A stretch of DNA of 64,000 bases from contig CAYSXY010000001.1 in NCBI GenBank assembly GCA_964435165.1, positions 43,847 to 107,846 of the forward strand, read 5' to 3'. Under the pieces are notes generated by a model. That model saw only the letters and a program-made list of their open reading frames with translations. It was not told the origin of the DNA and did not search any database. Shown here piece by piece: positions 18,409-29,721 of this stretch. The position numbers and the translations under genes were made by a program. This DNA is from an uncultured Rickettsiales bacterium. GTDB lineage: Bacteria > Pseudomonadota > Alphaproteobacteria > Rickettsiales > RI-342. Within the stretch, counting starts at the first letter, position 1. The number at the start of each line of letters is the position of its first letter.

Positions 18409-20103
18409 TTACTGCTCGAGATCGCTCTCAGTATTACATTCCAGCCCATCTTCGCTCACCGCGAGTGGGTCCTGCAACACAGCCGTTCCGCAATTGACAT
18501 CGGCGCCTGTACCGGTGTCACCCGCGGCCGGGGCCAATGCACCAAGCTGATCAGCCGGGATATTGCCTAGATCCTGCGTTGCGCTGAGGTCGATATTGAC
18601 GTCAAACACGCCCACTTCATAGCTTTCAAAGCTGGTATCCTGCTCAATCGACTGCTCAGAGAAGGAGATGAGCGGACGGTTGAGATCGTTCGGGCCGAAT
18701 TCTACATCACTGGGGTCTACCGTGCCGGTTGGCGTTGGCGCGGGCGCCGGTGTGGGCGCAGGCGTCGGCTCCGGTGTTGGTTCACCTTCCGGTGGTAGTG
18801 ATACTGGCGGGTTAGGTTCCGGCGTTGGGAACTCAACCGGCGGCTGACTTACCGGCGGATTTGACGGTTCCGGCGTCGGCAATGGCGGCGCTGTCGAAAC
18901 CGGTGGGTTTGTCGGCTCCGGCGTGGTTGGTTCCGGTGTCGTTGGTTCCGGTGTGGTTGGCTCCAGCGTGGTCGGTTCCGGTGTGGTTGGCTCCGGTGTG
19001 GTTGGCTCCGGTGTGGTCGGCTCAATCACAATCTCACCACTTGGATCTTCCACCAAATATAATGCATTGATTTCACTTGTGATATTCGCCGGACGGCTAA
19101 TAGGTATATCGAAGGTGTTATCGACAGCATTAACGGCTAAGATAACTGTACCACCAGTTTTATGGTGTGTATTGGCATTAATCCGTCCATTAACCGTCAC
19201 ACCATGATCTGCAGAGGTGTGTGCATCCGATACTTTGTTGCCATCATTCAGGAATGCAAACGGCACACCATGTCCGGGTGCCGGATCATCATACGCACCT
19301 TGAAATGAGCGGGGTCTTTTACCAGCATCAACCGCGATTATGTTATCACCATCCAGGCCAATAGCAAAGGTACGCCCAGACGCCAAAATGACATTACCGA
19401 AATCTTTCTGGTTTGCGTTTAATTGACCGCCTGATTGCAACTCCACCTCTGGAGCTACAAGGGCAATCACTGCATTATCCACAATATTGGTATTAACTTG
19501 ACCGGAAACGCTGATTTTTCCGCCGGAAGCGGGAATATCAAAGTAAAAGAGGTTGTCTGTAGCCGCTACAAACTCGTCAACATCAATATCAGCAGCTGTA
19601 GCCAAAAATCCTGCACTGTAAATGGAGCCGCCAACATGCAAGCCTTTGGGACTAACAATAATAACACGCCCGTCAGCCCGTAGCGTACCATTAATTTGCG
19701 GTACTGTAGCGCTGTTAATTACACGATTCAAAACGATTGATGACGGTGCAGGTTGATTAAATTCCACTTCTCTGCCTGCATTAATATCAAAGCTGTCCCA
19801 ATCTATCGCAGCACGATCTGATAAGTCATAAACATGCTTGGTGGATGAACTCTGACCAGGAGCTGTATTTAGCACTGCAGAGCCTGCTCGCACCGCATTC
19901 ATAACTGGTAAATCCGCTGCACTGGCAAAGCGGGCGGCTTCAAATGTCACCATACCGGCAATCGCCACAGCGGAGAGGCAGCGCTGCACCGGGCTGTGAC
20001 GGCGGCTGAGCGCAGTGGAGCTGGCATAGCCATGCATGATGGCGTTGTTATGGTTGTTTTTTGCTGTGGTGCGCATGGTTATACTCCTCTGACGATCACC
20101 CAA
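18409..20103 (-). CDS. Short two-partner-secretion exoprotein (TpsA) with a Pro/Thr linker and an acidic C-terminus carrying PAAG plus two Cys
   Basis: TPS domain IDWDSFDINAGREVEFNQPAPSSIVLNRV...INGTLRADGRVIIVSPKGLHVG, then a beta-helix-like region, (PEPTT)n, and PAAG at 18520-18531. Cys codons at 18490-18492 and 18436-18438. Confidence 0.85.
   Translation of the reverse strand: MGDRQRSITMRTTAKNNHNNAIMHGYASSTALSRRHSPVQRCLSAVAIAGMVTFEAARFASAADLPVMNAVRAGSAVLNTAPGQSSSTKHVYDLSDRAAIDWDSFDINAGREVEFNQPAPSSIVLNRVINSATVPQINGTLRADGRVIIVSPKGLHVGGSIYSAGFLATAADIDVDEFVAATDNLFYFDIPASGGKISVSGQVNTNIVDNAVIALVAPEVELQSGGQLNANQKDFGNVILASGRTFAIGLDGDNIIAVDAGKRPRSFQGAYDDPAPGHGVPFAFLNDGNKVSDAHTSADHGVTVNGRINANTHHKTGGTVILAVNAVDNTFDIPISRPANITSEINALYLVEDPSGEIVIEPTTPEPTTPEPTTPEPTTLEPTTPEPTTPEPTTPEPTNPPVSTAPPLPTPEPSNPPVSQPPVEFPTPEPNPPVSLPPEGEPTPEPTPAPTPAPAPTPTGTVDPSDVEFGPNDLNRPLISFSEQSIEQDTSFESYEVGVFDVNIDLSATQDLGNIPADQLGALAPAAGDTGTGADVNCGTAVLQDPLAVSEDGLECNTESDLEQ
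18905..19025 (-). repeat. In-frame 15-bp tandem repeat encoding (T)PEPT units, about 8 copies
   Basis: ggttggctccggtgt-type units repeated head to tail. Protein reads EPTTPEPTTPEPTTPEPTTLEPTTPEPTTPEPTTPEPT. Confidence 0.9.
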
Positions 20104-20250
20104 ATAGTAGTCACACGATCTGTTGTTATTCTGGTTGAATACGGGATACCGCTGCCACCCAAAATATTTAACAAATTGTTAAAATCAAGCGCTAATTCAC
20201 CCTACTGTTTAAATTAATGCCCCCAAGCCATTGCTGTTTAACAATTATAT

Positions 20251-21933
20251 CTAGAAGCGACGGACCAGGCCAACAAACAGCCGTGGCTGATCGCCGTCAT
20301 TGCGTTCGGCGCTGACATTACGCGTCAGTGGCACGGCCAGTTCAACAAAGCCGGTGGTTTGGCTGTTGACATTGAAGCGCACGCCCGGACCGAACGAGGC
20401 AAGCGTATCGCGCCCACTCACACCTGGCAGGCCGTCTTCTTCCCATACCGCTCCAAAATCATAATAGAGATAAGCCTGGTAAGAACTGAGATATTCATAA
20501 TCGGTTGCACGACCATAGCGTAGCTCACCGCGGAAGGCGACACCATGATCGCCGGTGATTTCCGAAGGATCATAAGCCGAGCCGAACAGCGAGCCCCCTA
20601 CCCCGAACTCCTCTGACGAGAGTAACGGATCGAACGCATACTGCCCGGTGACACTCGTGAAGAGTGAGAAGTCACGCGGCAGATCCTGCAGGCGGGTGAT
20701 GGTCGCGTTAATGCTGGTAAAGTCGGCTTCGCCATCAGGCCGCGAGCGGTTGAGGCCGTCATCGCTGGCGCCAAACGCATCAATCCCCTGGCGTAACTGC
20801 ATATCCAGCAGGTTGATGCCGCGCCAATCATCGGCAACATCGAGATTGAAGCCGGCAAAGAGCGTACGCACACTGTCATCATAGAGTTCGATGCCGGAGA
20901 TATCGGTTTCCGTATCGACCATCTCAAACCCGACACGGGCAAACACATTATACGTACGAGAGCGCACAAACGGATGCTCGACAGCCACTTCAAAACGGGT
21001 GCTTTCCCCTTCGATATTCAATGGCTCAAGGAACGAGCCTGGCTCGGTCATGCTGTAGGCGCCACGCAGTTCTATCCGCGTGCCTTCATTGCCAATCTGC
21101 TGCTCATGTGCCACATCAATAAAGCGCAGTTCATCCACTTCTGAGGTGAGGATGCCACGCACTGTTGTGCGCTCATACATGCCGAGAATCGAGTTGGCAG
21201 CGGCGATGCCCGTCAACTGGTAAGGCCCAAGCAGACGGCTGCCGCGATTATCGGCCTGAATCGCCCCTTCATAAGTATCATGCCCGACGAGCAACACGAG
21301 GCTGGATGCACCAGCTTCAATCTGCGAGGGCTGGAGAATGCCGCGTGCGGTCACGCCCGGCAGATCATCGGCCAACAGCAAGTAACGCTCCAGTGTTTTG
21401 ACATTGAGCGGCTTGCTTTCCTGAATTTTCGCGGCATAGGCGCGCAGTAATTCTTCACTGCCCTTGATCTCGCCCTGAATATTCACATCGCTGATGTGAC
21501 CTTCGGCAATTTGCAATGTAACGACACCATCTTTAATGCGCTGCGGGCCGATAAAGGCACGCGAGAGGATATATCCATCACGGCGATATTTTGCCGTAAT
21601 GTTGCGTGCCAACTGATTAATCTCACGCATGGTCACACGCTTGCCGAGATAATCACTCACTTCCATTTTCAATATGTCATCGTCATAGACACTGTTGCCC
21701 TCAAACATCATATCATTGAGGACAAAGCTGACTTCCTGAATGGCGGCGTCACCAGCAGTGGTTGCGCCTTCCTGTTCAATCACTGCATCCTGCCTCGGCG
21801 TTGGAAGACTGCGCGGCAAGATGTCGCGTTGCACCCGTTCCGGCGCGGCGGTGGGGGGCACGATTTGCGCCCAGCTGGCAGAAGAAGTAGTGATGAGTAA
21901 AGCGGAAGCAAGGGCAAAAGAAAGCGAGCGCAT
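20251..21933 (-). CDS. TpsB outer-membrane transporter (ShlB/FhaC/HecB family)
   Basis: Signal peptide, POTRA-like N-terminal region (FEGNSVYDDD...LARNITAKYRRDGYILSRAFI), C-terminal beta-barrel ending in an aromatic residue (LVRRF). Immediately upstream of the TpsA gene. Confidence 0.9.
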   Translation of the reverse strand: MRSLSFALASALLITTSSASWAQIVPPTAAPERVQRDILPRSLPTPRQDAVIEQEGATTAGDAAIQEVSFVLNDMMFEGNSVYDDDILKMEVSDYLGKRVTMREINQLARNITAKYRRDGYILSRAFIGPQRIKDGVVTLQIAEGHISDVNIQGEIKGSEELLRAYAAKIQESKPLNVKTLERYLLLADDLPGVTARGILQPSQIEAGASSLVLLVGHDTYEGAIQADNRGSRLLGPYQLTGIAAANSILGMYERTTVRGILTSEVDELRFIDVAHEQQIGNEGTRIELRGAYSMTEPGSFLEPLNIEGESTRFEVAVEHPFVRSRTYNVFARVGFEMVDTETDISGIELYDDSVRTLFAGFNLDVADDWRGINLLDMQLRQGIDAFGASDDGLNRSRPDGEADFTSINATITRLQDLPRDFSLFTSVTGQYAFDPLLSSEEFGVGGSLFGSAYDPSEITGDHGVAFRGELRYGRATDYEYLSSYQAYLYYDFGAVWEEDGLPGVSGRDTLASFGPGVRFNVNSQTTGFVELAVPLTRNVSAERNDGDQPRLFVGLVRRF

Positions 21934-22288
21934 GGTTCTTTTCCATTGTTATGATGTTTATTGTAATGCATCGCACGGGCGTGCAATGGAGATGCTGATG
22001 CAAAAGCAAGTTTTTAGTCCTTTTTTTCTCACCTGTAAAGGCGCTGCTTCATAGGCCACTGATTTGCCATTATAAGTTTAACAATCGTTATGGATTCTAA
22101 AGCCACGCAGCATCAGCATTTCGTCGCAGTCAGCGCATAATGGTAAAAAAATAAAGAATTGACAGAAGCCGCGTCATTTGCTCTTAAGCGATTATTCTTT
22201 GTTTTCGTGCACGCAGCATGAACATGGCCTTGCGCCATTACATAACACACTGATAGAACATAACCGTACTTCCTAGCAGGACAGTCCC

Positions 22289-23572
22289 ATGCGCTTTGCC
22301 CACTCTCTCACCTTTGCCTGCCTCGCCAGCACCGCTTTTGTAGCTGTGGCCATAATGCCCACTCATTCGCTGGCAGCCGATAATAAGGAATCGATTGCCG
22401 ATTTGCGCAAAGAGTTGCAGGTGCAACGTGGTCGGATTGAAGTGCAGCAGCGCGCCCTGGAGACACAACTTCGGGCACTGGAGAAAAGCCAGCAACGCCT
22501 TAATAAGCAGATTAGGGATATTGATAAGTTAGAGAAACGTCTCAGCAAAGCGCTTGAAACCGCTCTGCCGGAAGAGATGGAAGCCATTGAACAAGCGGAT
22601 AGCGCTGTACCTGATCAAGTGGGAACGGAGCGTCGCACAGAAGAGATGGAAAAACCACAGGCGGTAGAGGTTGCGACTCTGGCAGATGAAGGGGGCGTCT
22701 TGCTCTCTAAAGGACAGCTTATTATTGACCCGTCGCTCGAATATTCCCGCGCTTCCACCTTGCGAGTCGCGGTGGAGGGCTTCACCATTGTACCGGCATT
22801 GAATATTGGCTCGTTTGATATTTCGCAGATCGACCGTGACACGTACAGCGCATCGCTTGGCTTGCGCTATGGCCTGACCAACCGCCTGGAGATCAGCACC
22901 CGAGTGCCGTATGTGTATCGTAATGACAGCACGCTCAGTCGGCCAATTGGCGAAGGCGTTGGCGTTGAGCGCCTGACAGATGTAAGTGGTGATGGTATTG
23001 GCGATTTGGAGTTCGGCGCTAACTATCAGTTAACCAATGGCGAAGGCGGCTGGCCCTTCCTGGTCGCAAATTTCCGCGTGAAATCGAACACGGGCACCAA
23101 TCCGTTTGAAGTGAATATTGACCCCGATACCGGGCTGCAGACAGAATTGCCGACCGGTTCCGGCTTCTGGGCTCTCTCGCCAAGCATCACCGCCATCTTC
23201 CCCTCCGACCCAGTCGTGTTTTTCGGTAATCTTGGGTACTTATATAATATGCCCAATGACTTTGGTGGCAATACGGGTGAGATTGATCCGGGCGACAGTA
23301 TCAGCTTCAGCTTTGGTATGGGCCTGGGTATTAATGATCGCACGTCATTCAATGTGGGCTATGGTCACAGCGTGGTGTTTGAAACCACACAGAATGGTAA
23401 TACATTACCCACCTCCGATGTGCTGCAGGTTGGTTCTCTCGACCTTGGTTTTTCTTATCAGGTCAATGACTCGCAGAATCTCAACTTTACCGTCAGCGCT
23501 GGCCTGACGGATGATGCACCTGATGTGCGCCTGGTGTTCCGCGCACCTTTCAGCCTCAACCTGCATGAATAG
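22289..23572 (+). CDS. Outer-membrane beta-barrel protein with N-terminal coiled coil (FapF-like architecture)
   Basis: Signal peptide ending in SLA, about 55 aa of heptad-like sequence (IADLRKELQVQRGRIEVQQRALETQLRALEKSQQRLNKQIRDIDKLEKRL), an acidic linker, then alternating-hydrophobic beta-strand region with GIGDLEFGANYQL. The CDS is secure; the functional call is architectural only. Confidence 0.55.
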   Translation: MRFAHSLTFACLASTAFVAVAIMPTHSLAADNKESIADLRKELQVQRGRIEVQQRALETQLRALEKSQQRLNKQIRDIDKLEKRLSKALETALPEEMEAIEQADSAVPDQVGTERRTEEMEKPQAVEVATLADEGGVLLSKGQLIIDPSLEYSRASTLRVAVEGFTIVPALNIGSFDISQIDRDTYSASLGLRYGLTNRLEISTRVPYVYRNDSTLSRPIGEGVGVERLTDVSGDGIGDLEFGANYQLTNGEGGWPFLVANFRVKSNTGTNPFEVNIDPDTGLQTELPTGSGFWALSPSITAIFPSDPVVFFGNLGYLYNMPNDFGGNTGEIDPGDSISFSFGMGLGINDRTSFNVGYGHSVVFETTQNGNTLPTSDVLQVGSLDLGFSYQVNDSQNLNFTVSAGLTDDAPDVRLVFRAPFSLNLHE

Positions 23573-23745
23573 CTGCCATTCTTAAACTGCATAGCTGTTA
23601 TTTTTACTTCTCGTTCATGATTATTGATTCGCAATATCTTTCATAAGTCGCTCTTATGCTTGGATTGATGCGCTTTTGAATACAGACTGTTCACCAAATT
23701 TACTTATTAACAACAAACATTAACGGGCGTTTATTTTTACTTGCA

Positions 23746-23774
23746 TGTTTGAAAAAGGCTATTATGCATAGTGC
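23746..23774 (+). promoter_or_regulatory. Candidate sigma-70-type promoter for the repeat-protein gene
   Basis: TTACTT-17 nt-TATTAT about 90 nt upstream of the ATG at 23866, in an AT-rich 290-bp spacer. Sequence pattern only. Confidence 0.25.
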
Positions 23775-23865
23775 GCAGGTAAAGGCGTTTTTGAATATTG
23801 ACTATTCGTTCATTTTTAAATTCGTCGCAAATAAATCTCATAAATATCCGTTCTGGAGGATTACA

Positions 23866-25986
23866 ATGAATTTTAAAACTCTTCTTGGCACAACGTCTGC
23901 CGTTGCTCTGTTGGCTTCCGTAGCCAGCACCCCGGCTTACGCTGTGGACGATGCCATTGATGGCAACAAGAACGACAACAACACCGTTGACCAGTCGCAA
24001 GACACCAACGATGCGTCGTTTAATGATAACAGCGAACTGACCGATAACTCGGACAACTCGATTGATACCGATAATTCAATCGATACCGATAACTCGGACA
24101 ATTCGGATAACTCGATCGATACCGCTGATTCGTACAATGCTGACAACACGAACAATTCGGACAACTCCGTAGACACCGATGTTGACAACAGCAACAACGC
24201 TGATAACTCGGATAATTCGGATAATTCGATCGACACCGCTGATTCGTACAACGATCAGTCCGATAACTCGGTTGATAATGACTACGATTTCGACAATGAT
24301 GTTGATACTGATGTTGACAACAGCAACAACTCCGACAACTCGGACAACAGCTCTGTTGACACCGACAATTCCGACAATTCGGATAACTCGATCGATACCG
24401 CTGATTCGTACAACACGGATAACACGAACAATGCCGATAACTCGGACAATTCGGACAATTCCGTAGATACCGATACCGACAATTCCGACAACTCGGACAA
24501 CTCGGACAATTCGGATAACTCGATCGATACCGCTGATTCGTACAACGATCAGTCCGATAACACCGATAACTCGGATAACTCGATCGATACCGATACCGAC
24601 AATTCGAACAACTCCGATAACTCGGACAATTCGGATAACTCGATCGATACCGCTGATTCGTACAACGATCAGTCCGACAATTCGAACAACTCGGACAATT
24701 CGGACAACAGCTCCATTGATACCGACAATTCGAACAACTCCGATAATTCGGACAATTCGGACAACTCCATCGATACCGCTGATTCGTACAACGACAGCTC
24801 CGATAACTCGATTGATACCGATACGGACAACTCGATCGACAACGACTATTCGTATGACAATGATACGGATACCGATGTGGATAACTCCGACAATTCGGAC
24901 AATTCGGTTTACACCGAAACCAACACGGACAACTCGGACAACAGCCTGGTGACCACAACCACCACGCAAACCGATTCGTTCAACACCGATACGGATACCG
25001 ATGTTGATAATTCCGATAACTCGGATAACTCGATCGATACCGCTGATTCCTACAACACGGATAACAGCAATAACTCGGACAATTCGAACAATTCCGACAA
25101 CTCCAACAACTCGGATAACTCGAACAACTCCGACAACTCGATCGATACCGATACGGACAATTCGGACAATTCGACCACGGATATCGCTGATTCCTACAAT
25201 ACGGATAACAGCGACAACTCCGATAACTCGGTGAATGATTCGTACAATACCGACAACACGAACAACTCGGATAACTCCGACAATTCGGACAACTCGGTAT
25301 ACACCGAAACCAACACCGACAATTCCGATAACTCGGACAACTCGGACAACTCGACCACCGATATTGCTGATTCCTACAACACGGACAACAGCAACAACTC
25401 GGACAACTCGAACAACTCCGATAACTCCGATAATTCCGACAACTCGGTGAACGATTCCTACAACACCGCTGATTCGAACAACACTGACAACTCCGATAAC
25501 TCGGACAACTCAGTGAATGATTCGAACAATACTGAAGGTTCGTACAACACCACTGATAACTCCGATAACTCGGACAACAGTGACAGCTCGGTGAATGATT
25601 CCAATAACACCGACGATTCGTACAACGTTTCGGATTCGGATAACGACAACAACTCGTACAACACGACTGATTCGAACAACGATAACAGCGATAACAGCAT
25701 GAATGATAATCGCACCATCGTTGACAACAGCGTGAACGTGACGAGCGGTGATGTTCTGTTCCAGGGTAACAGCCAAGTTACCGCTTCGGTTCTGAACTCG
25801 ACCGTTGCTAACTCGACCGTGAACTGGGATCTGCAAGATGTGACCATTCAAGGTAACCGTCTGCAAGGTGAAGCCTTCAAAGGTTCCAGCGGTATCAACG
25901 CAGCGAACATGAACACCGGCGTGAACTCCAATGTTCAACAGTCGATTTCGGTTCGTGCGACCATCAACAATGGCGTAACCCCGTAA
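23866..25986 (+). CDS. Secreted 706-aa D/N/S/T-rich repeat protein with a C-terminal Q/N/G-rich module (candidate major fibre subunit, FapC-like)
   Basis: GGAGGA RBS 6 nt upstream of the ATG at 23866. Signal peptide MNFKTLLGTTSAVALLASVASTPAYA. About 563 aa of DNS-type repeats. C-terminus GNRLQGEAFKGSSGINAANMNTGVNSNVQQSISV is shared with the two downstream small proteins. Confidence 0.85.
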   Translation: MNFKTLLGTTSAVALLASVASTPAYAVDDAIDGNKNDNNTVDQSQDTNDASFNDNSELTDNSDNSIDTDNSIDTDNSDNSDNSIDTADSYNADNTNNSDNSVDTDVDNSNNADNSDNSDNSIDTADSYNDQSDNSVDNDYDFDNDVDTDVDNSNNSDNSDNSSVDTDNSDNSDNSIDTADSYNTDNTNNADNSDNSDNSVDTDTDNSDNSDNSDNSDNSIDTADSYNDQSDNTDNSDNSIDTDTDNSNNSDNSDNSDNSIDTADSYNDQSDNSNNSDNSDNSSIDTDNSNNSDNSDNSDNSIDTADSYNDSSDNSIDTDTDNSIDNDYSYDNDTDTDVDNSDNSDNSVYTETNTDNSDNSLVTTTTTQTDSFNTDTDTDVDNSDNSDNSIDTADSYNTDNSNNSDNSNNSDNSNNSDNSNNSDNSIDTDTDNSDNSTTDIADSYNTDNSDNSDNSVNDSYNTDNTNNSDNSDNSDNSVYTETNTDNSDNSDNSDNSTTDIADSYNTDNSNNSDNSNNSDNSDNSDNSVNDSYNTADSNNTDNSDNSDNSVNDSNNTEGSYNTTDNSDNSDNSDSSVNDSNNTDDSYNVSDSDNDNNSYNTTDSNNDNSDNSMNDNRTIVDNSVNVTSGDVLFQGNSQVTASVLNSTVANSTVNWDLQDVTIQGNRLQGEAFKGSSGINAANMNTGVNSNVQQSISVRATINNGVTP
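24022..25710 (+). repeat. Coding low-complexity array with 9-nt (Asp/Asn-Asn-Ser) periodicity and higher-order ADSYN punctuation
   Basis: gataactcg, gacaattcg and gacaactcc units repeated. Nine ADSYN-containing motifs by my count (IDTADSYN x7, TDIADSYN x2). Synonymous codon alternation breaks up perfect DNA identity. Confidence 0.92.
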
Positions 25987-26029
25987 TATACGGAGTGTAA
26001 CCAACGTTGTTACGATTTGCGGGAAGTGC

Positions 26030-26055
26030 CGAATTCGGCACTTCCCCTTCGTAAC
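26030..26055 (+). terminator. Strong stem-loop after the repeat-protein gene (possible attenuating terminator)
   Basis: gggaagtgccg aatt cggcacttccc, an 11-bp perfect stem 44 nt after the stop. No strong U-tract. Confidence 0.4.
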
Positions 26056-26136
26056 ATCAACCACAATATGTTATATCAAACCAGCAGGATCCTTCCTTTT
26101 GCTTTGATGTAACAACCTAATATCAGGATAACGATA

Positions 26137-26700
26137 ATGCGCTTACGCAAGTCGACCATTGCTATGACCTTTGTCGCGGTTGCCGCACTTGTAGGCTTCC
26201 GCCCAGCGGTTGCCGACCAGCCTGTGTTCAATTACAGCCCAATGTATGGTCCGGCTCATCAGGTATCCAACCTGTTTTTCCCTGGAGAACTTAGCCCGTG
26301 GCGTGACCTTTCTCTTCCGTGGAACGCCAGCACTGATGCAACCTGGCTGCGTTATGCCGAGAATTATGGCCCGGCACTGCCTCTGCCATCAATTCTGGAA
26401 GGCTCACCTTCTTCTGTGAGTATGACATTGGCTACCAATATGGAATTCTTCAATGCTCAAACGCTGCAGGATGACAATCTGAATGAGATGCGGGGTGCAT
26501 TCGCCGCTGAAACGTTGGGTGTGTCGATTCTGGAAGCGGCGGCTGTGCAAAACACCATCAATGGTGATTCCATTACCGGCTATAACCGCCTGCAGAATGA
26601 AGCCTTTCAAAATTCAAGCGGTGTGATCAGCGTGATTCAGAATACCGGTAATAATGTCATTATTCAGAACTCGACCATCGTCAACCTGCATATGGAATAA
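26137..26700 (+). CDS. Small secreted protein carrying the shared C-terminal Q/N/G module (FapB-like candidate)
   Basis: Signal peptide ...FRPAVA. LNEMRGAF motif. C-terminal YNRLQNEAFQNSSGVISVIQNTGNNVIIQNSTIVNL is about half identical to the C-terminus of the repeat protein. Confidence 0.7.
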   Translation: MRLRKSTIAMTFVAVAALVGFRPAVADQPVFNYSPMYGPAHQVSNLFFPGELSPWRDLSLPWNASTDATWLRYAENYGPALPLPSILEGSPSSVSMTLATNMEFFNAQTLQDDNLNEMRGAFAAETLGVSILEAAAVQNTINGDSITGYNRLQNEAFQNSSGVISVIQNTGNNVIIQNSTIVNLHME

Positions 26701-26772
26701 TTTACGCTGCATCCGGTCGCCAGGCGTGATAAGGACGGTGCTCGTACACGAAACAAAGACGAAAACAGGGAT

Positions 26773-27465
26773 ATGCGGCACATACTGACATTACTTGTAA
26801 CGATGATGGCCCTACAAGGGGCGCCCGCCCATGCGCAATTGGCATTATGGGATACGGTCGGCGGCAATTTTTCAGTTCCGGTGCAAACCATCTCCGAAAG
26901 GCGCTTTAGTGGTGTCATCCCTCAACAAAAAGATTTCAGCTGCGGTTCGGCTGCACTTGCGACACTCCTGACCTATCACTATGAGCGACCTATTACGGAG
27001 GAAGAAGCGCTGGAAGCCATGTATGCAGTCGGCGAACAGGAAAAAATCGAGCGTGAAGGCTTCTCCCTTCTGGATATGAAAAATTATCTGGCCACTCTGG
27101 GGCTGCGCGCCGATGGCTATCGTCAATCGCTTGATCAACTGAGTTCAGTAGGCATCCCAGCTATCGTCCTCATTAACTATAATGGCTATTTGCACTTTGT
27201 TGTTATCAAAGGCGTTACCGACGATGATGTATTGGTGGGCGACCCAGCGCTAGGCCTGCGCAGCATGGGGCGTGAGAAGTTTGAATCGATGTGGAACGGT
27301 ATTCTCTTTGTCATTCGTGACGATATTGATATCGCCAAAAGCAATTTCAACCAAATAACGGAATGGGCCATGATTGGTCAGGCTCCGATTACTGCACAGG
27401 CAACCTCTTTGCAGGATTTATCGAGCTTCTATCTCAATCTGCGCACCGCACCGAACTATTATTAA
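26773..27465 (+). CDS. Periplasmic C39-family cysteine peptidase (FapD-like, stand-alone, no ABC transporter)
   Basis: Signal peptide ...LQGAPAHA. QQKDFSCGSAALATLL (Cys codon 26941-26943), YLHFVVIKG (His), VLVGDPALG (Asp). Confidence 0.85.
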   Translation: MRHILTLLVTMMALQGAPAHAQLALWDTVGGNFSVPVQTISERRFSGVIPQQKDFSCGSAALATLLTYHYERPITEEEALEAMYAVGEQEKIEREGFSLLDMKNYLATLGLRADGYRQSLDQLSSVGIPAIVLINYNGYLHFVVIKGVTDDDVLVGDPALGLRSMGREKFESMWNGILFVIRDDIDIAKSNFNQITEWAMIGQAPITAQATSLQDLSSFYLNLRTAPNYY

Positions 27466-27467
27466 GG

Positions 27468-28013
27468 ATGATGACGTTCATGACCGTTGGATTTAGTGCA
27501 TCTCTTTCTCGCCTGACACAGAGTGCTGCCACTGTGGCATTGCTGCTCTCACTGGCGATGCCGGCCCACGCTTTTATTGATGATGTGCCCGATAGTGGCG
27601 CCGACGCAGAGGCATTTTTTGGGGCTGAAAACAAGGTAAGTGACGAGGAACTTTCCGGGATGCGTGGAGCGTATATCGACGCAAATGGCTTGGAAGTGAA
27701 TTTCACCCTGACGACACAAACTATTATCGATGGCCGTGTGGTCCATGAAGTGCGACTGACACCTCAAGTGACACCGACTTTCAACGTCAATGACCTATCC
27801 AAGCTGGTTCGTGTTGGTGAAGGCAATATTGCCTACCCGCAAGAGCTGCTGAATGACGCGAACCGTATCATGACTGTGATTCAGAACACAAATGATAACA
27901 CGGTGATTCAAAATCTGAACCTGCTCGATCTTGAAGTTGATAATGTGCAGGATTTCTACAATCAGCAAATGACTGGCATGGTCAATTTCTCTGCCGTTCG
28001 CGCTTTACGATAA
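27468..28013 (+). CDS. Small secreted paralogue of the 26137..26700 product
   Basis: Met cluster at 27468, 27471 and 27480 just after the C39 stop. Signal peptide ...LSLAMPAHA. LSGMRGAY motif and RIMTVIQNTNDNTVIQNLNLL module. Confidence 0.65.
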   Translation: MMTFMTVGFSASLSRLTQSAATVALLLSLAMPAHAFIDDVPDSGADAEAFFGAENKVSDEELSGMRGAYIDANGLEVNFTLTTQTIIDGRVVHEVRLTPQVTPTFNVNDLSKLVRVGEGNIAYPQELLNDANRIMTVIQNTNDNTVIQNLNLLDLEVDNVQDFYNQQMTGMVNFSAVRALR

Positions 28014-28068
28014 GCAGGCAAGCGCCGCTGATCCAGCCGTTATGTAATAACCGCCGCCTCAGCGTGCA

Positions 28069-29298
28069 CTAAATCACGCCGAGTGATTTCCCGACACGCT
28101 CGAAGGTGTCCAGTGCAAAACTGACTTGATCGTCGGTAAGCGCAGCATTCATTTGAATACGAAGCCGTGCTGCTCCTTCCGGCACAACGGGATAGCCAAA
28201 TCCTGTAATGAAGATGCCTTCTTCCAATAGCGCCTGACTCATCTTAATCGCAAATGAGGTTTCTCCCACAATAATTGGGATAATGGCAGATGGGCCATCC
28301 AGTGGCGTGAATCCTTTTTCTTTCAATCCATTGTGCATCATGGCGACGAGTTCATGCAGCCTGGCCAGGCGCTCCGCTTCACGTTCCATCACCCGGATCG
28401 CTTCCAGCGCGCTGGCTGCTACGGTAGCCGGCAATGCGTTGGAGAAGAGTTGCGGCCGTGAGACCTGATAGAGATATTCAATGACCGGCGCCGGAGCCGC
28501 CACATAGCCACCGGCCGCGCCCCCCAATGCTTTGCCCAGGGTTCCGGTGATAATATCAACCTCACCTTCCACCCCAAAATACTCCGCTGTGCCGCGGCCA
28601 TGCGCCCCCATCACCCCCACGCCATGACAGTCATCCACCATCAATAACGCGTCATATTCCTTACACAGCGCAATGATGTCAGGCAGTGGGGCAATATCAC
28701 CCTCCATGCTGAACACGCCATCCGTAATGACCAAACGTCGCCGTGCTTCGCCTGTTTCTTTCAGTTGAGCTTCCAGATCATCCATATCAGCATGTTGGTA
28801 GATCATGCGTTTTGCCTTTGACATGCGGCAGCCATCAATGAGCGATGCATGGTTCAGCGCATCGCTGATGATCACATCCTCCGGCCCGGCCAGCGCTGGA
28901 ATCACGCCGGTATTTGCCTGCCAGCAAGAAGGATAGGTCAAGGCAGCGTCGCATTGGTGTAATTGCGCCAGCGCCGATTCAATCTCCTTATGGATAGTAA
29001 AACTACCGCAGATAAAGCGAACGGATGCCGTGCCGGCACCATACTGATCCAGTGCCGCCTTACCGGCTGCGACAACCTGTGGATGATTGGCCAGCCCCAA
29101 ATAGTTATTGGCGGATAACACCAGCACATGCCCGGCATCGTCCATGTCCACTTCCGTATCCATCGGGCTTTCAATGGCATGGTGCGCTTTGTAGGTGCCT
29201 TTATCGCGCATATGCAGAAGATTAGCTTCTATCTGATGAACAAAATCCGAACGCGCGGCAGATCCCTGATGAATAGGCTGGTTTAGTGCATGCGACAT
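28069..29298 (-). CDS. kbl: Glycine C-acetyltransferase (2-amino-3-ketobutyrate CoA ligase)
   Basis: Collinear with remembered E. coli Kbl: NNYLGLANHP, ASVRFICG, ISDALNHASIIDG, DGVFSMEGD, DDCHGVG, ITGTLGKALGGAAGGY (PLP Lys), ending GKSLGVI. Confidence 0.88.
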   Translation of the reverse strand: MSHALNQPIHQGSAARSDFVHQIEANLLHMRDKGTYKAHHAIESPMDTEVDMDDAGHVLVLSANNYLGLANHPQVVAAGKAALDQYGAGTASVRFICGSFTIHKEIESALAQLHQCDAALTYPSCWQANTGVIPALAGPEDVIISDALNHASLIDGCRMSKAKRMIYQHADMDDLEAQLKETGEARRRLVITDGVFSMEGDIAPLPDIIALCKEYDALLMVDDCHGVGVMGAHGRGTAEYFGVEGEVDIITGTLGKALGGAAGGYVAAPAPVIEYLYQVSRPQLFSNALPATVAASALEAIRVMEREAERLARLHELVAMMHNGLKEKGFTPLDGPSAIIPIIVGETSFAIKMSQALLEEGIFITGFGYPVVPEGAARLRIQMNAALTDDQVSFALDTFERVGKSLGVI

Positions 29299-29327
29299 AA
29301 ATTCTCCCCTTTAAGTCTTATAGCTTT

Positions 29328-29358
29328 TCCCACCAATTTCTGTACAGAAATTAGTGGG
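29328..29358. promoter_or_regulatory. Palindrome upstream of kbl (candidate operator or 5'-UTR hairpin)
   Basis: cccaccAATTTCTGTACAGAAATTagtggg. The 18-bp core is a perfect palindrome, with its proximal edge about 30 nt (centre about 45 nt) upstream of the kbl ATG. Confidence 0.35.
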
Positions 29359-29721
29359 TCGTTCAGACGCCACTAAGGCTTACGCGCCAACTATGGCGCG
29401 GGCAGCAGTCGCGGCCTCATAGCCATTCAGATTGTATGAAAATTAATGTGAATGGCTATAGAGAGTGTCATCACATTCTCTATCTTGTGACGACACTCTC
29501 TATGTCATTTTATATAATAATGCGATCAGCGATGGAATCATGATGTATGCCATATGAATGCTTGCAGCGCATAGCCGTCATGTGCAAATGCTGTGATTTC
29601 AAGCGGCTATGACGCAAAACTTTCACCATTCTGTCATTCGATTGTCTTCATTGCAGGATACTCTTAATTTATCCAAACAGATGATGTTTTTGCACACAGA
29701 TTCAGTTTCAGCGTATAGGAG

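Follow-up and report, generated by a model that had tools for sequence, protein, structure and literature searches.

The locus analysed here raises the question of what a secreted bacterial protein could do with several hundred residues drawn largely from Asp, Asn, Ser, and Thr. It lies in a stretch of 64,000 nucleotides, hereafter the window, from an uncultured Rickettsiales bacterium (GTDB lineage RI-342, Alphaproteobacteria; assembly GCA_964435165.1, contig CAYSXY010000001.1, positions 43,847 to 107,846 of the forward strand), and all coordinates given below are those of the window. The gene in question, the array gene, is the second of five co-directional genes in an operon, and its product is, on balance, probably the large subunit of a Fap-type fibre system of a non-canonical kind, with the 563-residue array as its variable, polyanionic N-terminal part. 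This reading is favoured because a FapF homologue, a C39 peptidase, and two small secreted proteins adjoin the gene, because the C-terminal module of the array protein is shared with the small subunit, and because the same architecture recurs in other loci.

According to this reading, the protein would cross the inner membrane by the Sec pathway and would stay unfolded in the periplasm, since Lys, Arg, His, Cys, Pro, and Trp are absent from the array, hydrophobic residues are few, and the net charge is about -154. The chain would then thread through the FapF-like trimeric channel, as FapB, FapC, and FapE do in Pseudomonas, and the C39 peptidase would mature the small subunit at a double-glycine-like site. 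Outside the cell, the C-terminal module could stack with the modules of the small subunit to give a cross-beta fibre or a cell-surface anchor, and the array would project outward as an extended, strongly hydrated acidic coat, probably binding divalent cations. The even spacing of hydrophobic residues suggests that short amphipathic segments of the array may adopt a beta conformation, perhaps only on charge neutralisation.

The Array Protein

The array gene and its product contain the following features:

23855 to 23859, + strand: Shine-Dalgarno sequence GGAGG, 7 nt ahead of the array gene's ATG (direct sequence reading)
23866 to 23943, + strand: predicted Sec signal peptide of 26 residues, cleavage after AYA (direct reading)
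23944 to 24021, + strand: N-terminal segment of the mature protein, short, polar, and without repeats (translation)
24022 to 25710, + strand: 563-residue D/N/S/T array, in which (D/N)-N-(S/T) triplet runs are punctuated by IDTADSYN, VDTD(T/V)D, VNDS(Y/N)NT, and VYTETNT
24434 to 24810, + strand: youngest higher-order repeat, with a 120-nt (40-residue) unit, 3.1 copies, and 85% matches (best array of Tandem Repeats Finder, TRF)
25711 to 25983, + strand: conserved Fap-like C-terminal module of 91 residues, ...VTASVL..TVANSTV....GNRLQGEAFKGSSGINAANMNTGVNSNVQQSISV... (alignment of 23 homologous modules)

The coding sequence (23866 to 25986, + strand) specifies 706 residues, and the array corresponds to exactly 563 codons in its frame, as the original prediction had it. 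The open reading frame mechanically begins at TTG 23749, but the true start is almost certainly ATG 23866, because GGAGG stands 7 nt upstream of it and a textbook signal peptide with the predicted cleavage MNFKTLLGTTSAVALLASVASTPAYA↓VDD follows; an equivalent N-terminus is present in all homologues. Two open reading frames of 312 and 297 residues that run antisense across the array (24020 to 24969, - strand) were considered and set aside as by-products of low complexity, their translations being Cys/Arg/Pro-rich or Ile/Val/Arg-rich and neither a start context nor a homologue having been found for them.

Asn (26.8%), Asp (26.6%), Ser (21.8%), and Thr (10.7%) make up 86% of the array, which contains a single Gly and has a grand average of hydropathy of -1.9. 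The extreme acidity proposed earlier is borne out by the net charge and the lack of any basic residue, and every motif that had been named is present in the protein: DNS occurs 81 times, IDTADSYN seven times, TDIADSYN twice, VYTETNTDNS twice, and VDTD.DNS three times. Two parts of the earlier description were too strong. Triplets of the (D/N)-N-(S/T) type, in runs of two to nine units, account for 53% of the array (strict DNS for 43%) and not for nearly the whole mature protein; likewise, hydrophobic residues are not essentially absent until the last 90 residues or so, since A/V/I/L/M/F contribute 9% of the array and Tyr a further 3.4%, regularly spaced, with about one I/V/Y/F/L per ten residues.

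C-Terminal Module and Fap-Like Operon

The 23 aligned modules follow the consensus ...VT.S.L..TV..S.V.F....G.N.V...AF.GA.GI.AV.QN(T/S)G.N(S/A)NTQQ.(V/I)TV. Compared with the Fap repeat, the module keeps G-x4-N-x3-G, has two additional residues before QQ, and carries Gln in place of the final Asn; when N/Q is allowed in a relaxed Fap pattern, the array protein has one match, at residue 676. The last ~85 residues aligned with the small-subunit family in hhalign with a probability of 95.9% (E 5.9e-9), which indicates homology, and five of the 23 relatives' modules matched NCBIfam FapB weakly (best 2.8e-4). Each subunit protein carries one such module and not three repeats. The small fibre-forming or anchoring module that had been postulated thus finds support in this Fap-like C-terminus, and the claim that the protein differs from FapC linkers and curlin repeats also holds, the array being an N-terminal extension before a single module. 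A PDB search with the sequence of the array protein gave chance-level matches only.

The other genes of the operon are as follows:

22289 to 23572, + strand: gene 1, FapF-like outer-membrane channel with a signal peptide, a coiled coil at about residues 30 to 120, and a beta-barrel (PDB, NCBIfam, and Pfam matches)
26137 to 26700, + strand: gene 3, small subunit of 187 residues with a signal peptide, a pro-region, the motif NLNEMRGA↓F, and one Fap-like module ending SGVISVIQNTGNNVIIQNSTIVNL (family alignment A5, hhalign)
26773 to 27465, + strand: gene 4, FapD-like periplasmic C39 cysteine peptidase with a signal peptide, Cys57 in FSCGSAAL, and His141 in LHFVVIKG (Pfam and NCBIfam matches)
27468 to 28013, + strand: gene 5, FapE-like protein of 181 residues with a signal peptide, the double-glycine-leader-like VSDEELSGMRGA↓Y, and C-terminal VIQNTNDNTVIQN (family alignment A4, invariant R-G)

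The locus encodes a channel of the FapF type, which in Fap is a trimer with a coiled coil and a 12-stranded barrel: the product of gene 1 matched PDB FapF 5o65 over residues 124 to 421 (E 6.9e-30) and NCBIfam FapF over its full length (3.4e-51), the latter with 174 bits against an equivalog cut-off of 700, as befits a homologue and not an equivalog, and it also matched FilC (2.9e-17, NCBIfam) and Phenol_MetA_deg (9.6e-11, Pfam). A FapD-type C39 peptidase with its catalytic Cys and His is likewise encoded, gene 4 matching Peptidase_C39 (7.5e-25, Pfam), NCBIfam FapD (1e-48, 166 bits against a cut-off of 330), and FilB (4.5e-40). No curated Pfam or NCBIfam family matched genes 3 and 5, whose products end in N/Q/I-rich motifs (SGVISVIQNTGNNVIIQNSTIVNL and VIQNTNDNTVIQNLN, respectively). 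Gene 5 itself has no FapE match, and three of 21 relatives match NCBIfam FapE weakly (E 0.0035 or weaker); its position after the C39 gene and its N-terminal processing motif fit FapE.

The small subunit was found in 60 of the 90 sources searched, a set in which the window is counted and one region is present in a few duplicate copies. In the window, its NLNEMRGA↓F is a degenerate motif of the double-glycine type. Across the family, the leader motif takes the form xxD.EL..(M/L)RGG↓F and follows a Sec signal peptide and a short pro-region (in the window, in L002, L005, and L008, and in about 45 further loci); it gave 56 matches in 50 of the 90 sources and none in shuffled sequences, and it occurs in the FapE-like protein and, in some loci, in the small subunit. 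We take this motif as a candidate for the site at which the periplasmic C39 peptidase cleaves.

Relatives of the Array Protein

More than 1,000 homologues were obtained with the FapF-like protein as the query. Related loci were not found in a locus search with this single sequence, whereas an alignment-based scan succeeded and yielded 531 FapF-like loci among the GTDB species representatives, of which 80 were fetched. The closest relatives, with 46–59% identity, belong to metagenome-assembled genomes (MAGs) of uncultured "Rickettsiales" or Alphaproteobacteria, and more distant ones to Nitrosomonas, Thiobacillus, Massilia, Methylobacter, Chromatiaceae, Salinisphaera, Neptunomonas, and Desulfocapsaceae. 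A hidden Markov model of the module was built from the last ~90 residues of four large proteins, and the combination of a signal peptide, a long low-complexity array, and one C-terminal module was recognised in about 45 loci of Alpha-, Beta-, Gamma-, and Deltaproteobacteria. The array protein is thus one member of a widespread family and not a singular oddity; that many proteobacterial homologues share its type of array had escaped the original prediction.

The arrays of the family differ in composition. Acidic D/N/S/T(/G/K) arrays (13–25% acidic residues) are found in the alphaproteobacterial clade and in some Gamma- and Deltaproteobacteria, and G/A/S/T/N arrays (1–9% acidic) in Burkholderiales, Thiobacillus, and others. 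Two MAGs of Chromatiaceae (L028, "DNSDNSDNSVDTATADSNN", and L032) and one of Desulfocapsaceae (L036, "NSVNTADSYNTDDNS") have DNS arrays punctuated by V(D/N)TADS(Y/N)N; the arrays of Salinisphaera dokdonensis, Neptunomonas, and Nitrosomonas mobilis are also rich in DNS but are punctuated differently. In the window protein, ADS(Y/N/Q/G)N was counted 10 times, in L028 22 times, in L032 17 times, and in L036 11 times, compared with fewer than 0.2 times in composition-preserving shuffles. Since the FapF-like proteins of these three loci are only 39–43% identical to that of the window, the shared DNS/ADS(Y/N)N arrays represent either old conservation or convergence; either way, selection acts on a short motif and not on composition alone. 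What seems to be conserved in the array is its composition together with the short motif (I/V)(D/N)TADS(Y/N)N, and the number and length of the units change fast. Array length is labile: within one clade, whose modules are 63–81% identical, the proteins range from 288 to 544 residues, and there are members as short as 94–170 residues, many of them truncated gene calls at contig ends.

An exhaustive phmmer search with the C-terminal 100 residues gave 26 matches, mostly fragments of 94–170 residues; a protein-word search with the 94-residue C-terminus found none, and one with the 23-module profile returned 21 proteins only, mostly small subunits or C-terminal fragments, the protein-word index failing to return long array proteins, including that of the window itself. 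Short-read assemblies systematically truncate array genes, and the family is under-counted in protein databases. A literature search on the array sequence, FapF-like systems, and the Fil system retrieved nothing relevant and no paper describing a single-module variant.

Culturable hosts of homologues include Nitrosomonas europaea, N. eutropha, Thiobacillus denitrificans, and Salinisphaera dokdonensis, so that hypotheses about the family are directly testable. In culturable carriers the gene order is large subunit, small subunit, C39 peptidase, FapE-like, and FapF-like, as in the betaproteobacterial relative N. europaea ATCC 25978 (L055, 4902 to 9263) and also in L067, L074, L085, and L068; the public record of the N. 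europaea large-subunit gene has a masked (N) stretch inside its array. Some relatives carry at least seven tandem copies of a module (N.I.DNAF.NAKGAFNVLQN.SINS.VQQGMAIAA.VN) in place of the low-complexity array, a design closer to FapC and CsgA; these are P0157 (556 residues), P0148 (5934 residues, 11 matched stretches), L046 (11022 to 12899), and L042 (11171 to 13300). In L002 (5929 to 7827, - strand) and L008 (4279 to 5871, - strand), a gene divergent from the FapF-like gene encodes a protein with repeats of the calcium-binding type, which in L002 contains ~35 tandem GGGT units followed by RTX-like GGxGxD repeats and in L008 has a HemolysinCabind Pfam match. DNDGxD motifs are present in the related protein of L002.

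Comparison with Known Systems

The closest parallel is the Fap system of Pseudomonas. Clear homologues of FapF (6.9e-30) and FapD (1e-48) are encoded in the window, and a weak resemblance extends to FapE and FapB. The subunits of both systems are Sec-dependent, rich in N/Q/G/S, and marked by the pattern G-x4-N-x3-G...QQ; both systems also have a repeat common to the large and small subunits and a variable polar region presumed to be exposed. In Fap, unfolded substrates are exported by FapF, for which no energy source at the outer membrane is known, and secretion requires FapD, a C39 peptidase of the periplasm (PMC5557850); the linkers of FapC vary and are considered exposed (PMC3792158, also the source of the strict Fap repeat pattern). 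According to a 2025 survey, three repeats and the order fapABCDEF are near-universal for Fap, with FapA being optional (PMC12822426). The window departs from this plan in several respects. Its subunits have one module and not three imperfect repeats, and its variable region is a 563-residue N-terminal array and not a set of inter-repeat linkers. The operon runs F-like, large subunit, small subunit, D-like, and E-like instead of fap(A)BCDEF, the FapF-like gene standing first; FapA is missing, and no further operon gene could be FapA. Moreover, the FapE-like protein and the small subunit bear a canonical-looking double-glycine leader motif, which Fap proteins are said to lack (Rouse et al., PMC5557850), and the host is alphaproteobacterial, a class that is not among the Fap hosts listed in PMC3792158. 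Because the strict repeat pattern is absent and each subunit has a single module, the window system is a distant relative of Fap and does not belong to the canonical family.

The wider interest of the locus follows from these departures. Among the secretion systems for bacterial functional amyloid only two are well studied, and Fap, one of them, has been pictured as nearly invariant and unreported in Alphaproteobacteria (PMC12822426, PMC3792158). The locus belongs to a large sister group, with 531 FapF-like relatives, that breaks these rules: its subunits have a single module, and one of them is fused to a fast-turnover polar array whose acidity is extreme in several lineages. Natural variants within this group could show what a FapF channel is able to export and what drives export. 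In addition, the motif ...EL..(M/L)RG(G/A)↓(F/Y), present in 50 of the 90 sources, is a candidate site for a FapD-type peptidase, whose target in Pseudomonas is still unknown.

Similarity to other systems is more limited. The pair of C39 peptidase and FapF-type protein also resembles the Acinetobacter Fil "putative pilus system" (FilB 4.5e-40, FilC 2.9e-17), but these scores lie below those for FapD and FapF, and none of the three window subunit proteins matches any Fil model. Curli (CsgA and CsgB exported via CsgG) provide a likeness in design: N/Q-rich unfolded subunits, ATP-free export through a dedicated channel, polymerisation outside the cell, and a major and a minor subunit with a common repeat. 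However, there is no homology, the channel belongs to another family, and curlins have no long low-complexity extension; the curlin pattern S-x5-Q-x-G-x2-N-x-A-x3-Q is absent from the array protein, and no Csg match was found among the proteins of the locus in Pfam or NCBIfam.

In composition, the array is reminiscent of the SD-repeat stalks of staphylococcal Clf and Sdr proteins and of the (DSS)n repeats of dentin phosphophoryn, which consist of hundreds of Asp and Ser (or Asn) residues in di- or tripeptide units and act as an extended stalk or as a Ca2+- or mineral-binding polyanion. Sequence and organism are different, the unit of the array being D-N-S with conserved hydrophobic punctuation, and no modification enzymes are encoded near the array gene. 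The window protein, in which DSS occurs twice, also lacks the hallmark of Gram-positive SD-repeat adhesins, an (SD)n dipeptide repeat with an LPXTG sortase signal behind it (LPXTG none, SDSD once); its host is Gram-negative, and it does not belong to that group. A mechanistic parallel may exist with the RTX nonapeptide-repeat substrates of type 1 secretion, whose acidic repeats are unfolded inside the cell and bind Ca2+ outside, aiding export, although the export route of the window protein would be Sec followed by a FapF-like channel. The array protein, with its single Gly, has no RTX GGxGxDxUx, TSP3, or EF-loop (DxDxDG-type) pattern and no HemolysinCabind match in Pfam.

Evidence against the Fibre-System Reading and Alternative Explanations

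Several observations weigh against the fibre-system reading. The strict Fap repeat G-x4-N-x3-G-x6-N is found neither in the array protein nor in any of the 23 modules, no Pfam or NCBIfam family, FapB and FapC included, matches the array protein, and a PDB search with the module profile matched no chain, FapC included, above chance level. That the protein leaves by the FapF-like channel, forms fibres, and binds cations is inferred from the genes and by analogy with Fap. Moreover, a featureless brush needs no strict hydrophobic parity and more usually contains Pro and Gly, and the beta conformation suggested by parity meets the difficulty that a significant parity bias was detected in only three to four of 15 homologous arrays tested, so that there is no family-wide rule.

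The parity itself is pronounced, and it supports an alternative that we rate as unlikely but deserving some weight: the array could form the structural core on its own, as a beta-rich solenoid or stacked sheet whose assembly depends on cations and in which units of 6–36 residues are imperfect fibre repeats. One face would carry I/V/Y/T/N and the opposite, acidic face D/S, with Ca2+ or Mg2+ neutralising the latter. Over 580 residues, 54 of the 58 I/V/L/F/Y/W/M residues fall on one residue parity, and 45 of 49 distinct segments between hydrophobic residues have an even length (42 of 44 unique segments in a stricter count). Thr is enriched on the hydrophobic parity (48 residues compared with 14 on the opposite one) and Asp on the other (102 compared with 55). 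Where the number of triplets between anchors is odd, one extra residue (T, A, or S) restores even spacing, as in IDTADSYN-T-(5 triplets) and ...DNS-S-IDT, which can be set beside IDTADSYN-(2 or 4 triplets). The punctuation motifs can therefore be seen as short, strand-like amphipathic stretches (V-D-T-D-T-D, I-D-T-A-D-S-Y-N) whose register is maintained across the spacers, and the parity hints at a latent beta-strand character. A significant bias is also present in the independent arrays L036 (18/20) and L015 (21/27), with L002 (35/54) being marginal, Pro is absent and Gly nearly so, and (V/I)(D/N)TADS(Y/N)N is conserved across classes. Nevertheless, the bias is missing from most homologous arrays, even spacing was favoured in none of 12 G/A/S/T-type arrays tested, one of which, L081, is biased the opposite way; parity could be partly inherited, passively, through growth by even blocks of 6, 20, or 40 residues (TRF periods of 18, 60, and 120 nt). 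The high net negative charge speaks against this alternative as well, and a regular beta-solenoid was set aside, as unit lengths varying from 6 to 36 residues are incompatible with it. AlphaFold2 gave no secondary structure for the mature protein modelled without an alignment (mean predicted local distance difference test, pLDDT, 31.7), a result that would agree with disorder but says little in the absence of an alignment, and for the C-terminal module with a 20-row alignment (pLDDT 49.1) it gave one low-confidence hairpin at GINAAN...VQQSIS, on the G-x4-N-x3-G motif; both models are consistent with a subunit that lacks a fold as a monomer, and say nothing further. We take the parity to be a real, unexplained register rule in a low-complexity sequence, and together with the absence of Pro and Gly it argues against a featureless random coil.

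Charge and location of the array have also been considered from the side of transport. The array could chiefly aid export, as a polyanion driven through the energy-independent FapF-like pore by a periplasm-negative Donnan potential, with cations binding outside and stopping back-sliding in a ratchet like the Ca2+-induced folding of RTX proteins, its surface function being secondary. The 563 residues without K, R, or H, the position of the array, always N-terminal to the module in the ~45 homologues, and the lack of a known energy source for the FapF system at the outer membrane (PMC5557850) would all fit, yet the weakly acidic arrays of Betaproteobacteria, with the same architecture, imply that export in the family does not depend on negative charge, members with short arrays (94–170 residues) exist, and the conserved ADS(Y/N)N motif is left unexplained, so that only a slim chance can be given to this explanation. 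Slimmer still is the chance that the array is a mucin-like stalk with sugars on Ser/Thr or Asn, comparable to the serine-aspartate repeats in adhesins of staphylococci. The SD-repeat stalks of Gram-positive adhesins are glycosylated, and the array offers 29 N-x-S/T sequons and a Ser plus Thr content of 33%; however, the bacterial D/E-x-N-x-S/T sequon is found at three sites only, a glycosyltransferase is absent from the five-gene operon and its immediate neighbours, and glycosylation in the periplasm fits poorly with the passage of an unfolded chain via a narrow FapF-type pore. The boldest proposal, finally, which we regard as improbable as a whole though better placed than either the export or the glycosylation explanation, takes the DNS array for a new kind of material outside the cell: a polyanion able to form beta structure, constrained by parity and gated by cations, which its own charge would drive through an energy-independent FapF-type pore and which would set outside as an acidic sheet with Asn/Thr ladders and an Asp/Ser face, a template for cations or minerals. 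The clade would then constitute a distinct, hitherto unrecognised functional-amyloid-like system that is common among environmental proteobacteria and combines single-module subunits with an initiator truly processed at a double-glycine site.

Repeat Growth and Integrity of the Assembly

At the DNA level, the proposed 9-nt periodicity is real: self-identity reaches 0.51 at a lag of 9 nt and 0.49 at one of 18 nt, whereas it is ~0.2 at the remaining lags and 0.27 for the neighbouring gene, and TRF reports periods of 9, 18, 36, 54, 60, 66, and 120 nt in the array. The suggestion that alternating synonymous codons limit DNA identity and protect the array from recombination had to be rejected. When synonymous codons were shuffled among positions of the same amino acid (500 shuffles), adjacent DNS units with identical DNA were not depleted (8 of 40, compared with 5.5 +/- 2.2 in the shuffles), and the same codon recurred at +3 about as often as in the shuffles (114 of 213, compared with 111 +/- 7). 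Long exact repeats were in excess, the longest measuring 59 nt (29 +/- 4 in the shuffles) and repeated 18-mers numbering 230 (94 +/- 22). Because long exact repeats exceed those of the synonymous shuffles, the array DNA bears the signature of recent block duplication and not of avoidance of identity.

Misassembly through collapsed or chimeric repeats, which the original prediction had named as a danger, is largely excluded by an independent check with two Logan contigs from run SRR7048223. One of them (L001) corresponds to 21032 to 24115 with one mismatch and the other (L090) to 24648 to 29389 with none, so that 1,063 of the 1,689 array bases (63%; 24648 to 25710) are exactly reproduced. The sole unbridged stretch is 24116 to 24647 (532 nt), which overlaps the young 120-nt repeat, and the remaining assembly uncertainty is the copy number within this stretch only. 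Since the longest exact repeat within the coding sequence is 59 nt, which k-mers above that length can span, an assembler with short k breaks there and one with longer k need not. That the array is an assembly artefact, or that the gene is not expressed, is therefore hardly probable, even if both ends of that stretch are breakpoints in a k=31-type assembly of this run, the exact 706-residue product has no record elsewhere, and the predominance of 94–170-residue C-terminal fragments from short contigs among database relatives tells that such arrays do break assemblies. The frame remains open over 2.1 kb with a ribosome-binding site, a signal peptide, and a conserved C-terminus, most of the array is identical in an independent contig, and the same architecture is found in isolate genomes and in contigs of ~0.1 to 0.5 Mb.

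Flanking Features

Just 3' of the array stop codon lies one further element of the operon:

26008 to 26114, + strand: two strong stem-loops, the first with an 11-bp G+C-rich stem (GGGAAGUGCCG/CGGCACUUCCC)

The region from 25975 to 26140 folds with -58.8 kcal/mol (z = -8.5 relative to shuffles). A terminator scan did not call these stem-loops, behind which there is no T-run; they are possibly an attenuator or a stabiliser of the mRNA 3' end, and such strong hairpins would fit an array gene expressed above the downstream genes.

The rest of the window is an ordinary alphaproteobacterial chromosome (AddA-type helicase, NtrY, DXS, and IleRS), and its DXS is at most 72% identical to that of any species representative, the best matches all being Alphaproteobacteria. 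A two-partner secretion (TPS) pair adjoins the Fap-like operon (18409 to 21933, - strand) and comprises a TpsB of the ShlB/FhaC type and a TPS-domain protein with ~10 tandem PEPTT units. TpsB also adjoins the Fap-like operon in six more alphaproteobacterial loci (L005/L010, L013, L018, L020, L021, and L023), three of which (L005/L010, L020, and L023) likewise have the TPS-domain gene, and the linkage looks conserved within the alphaproteobacterial clade.

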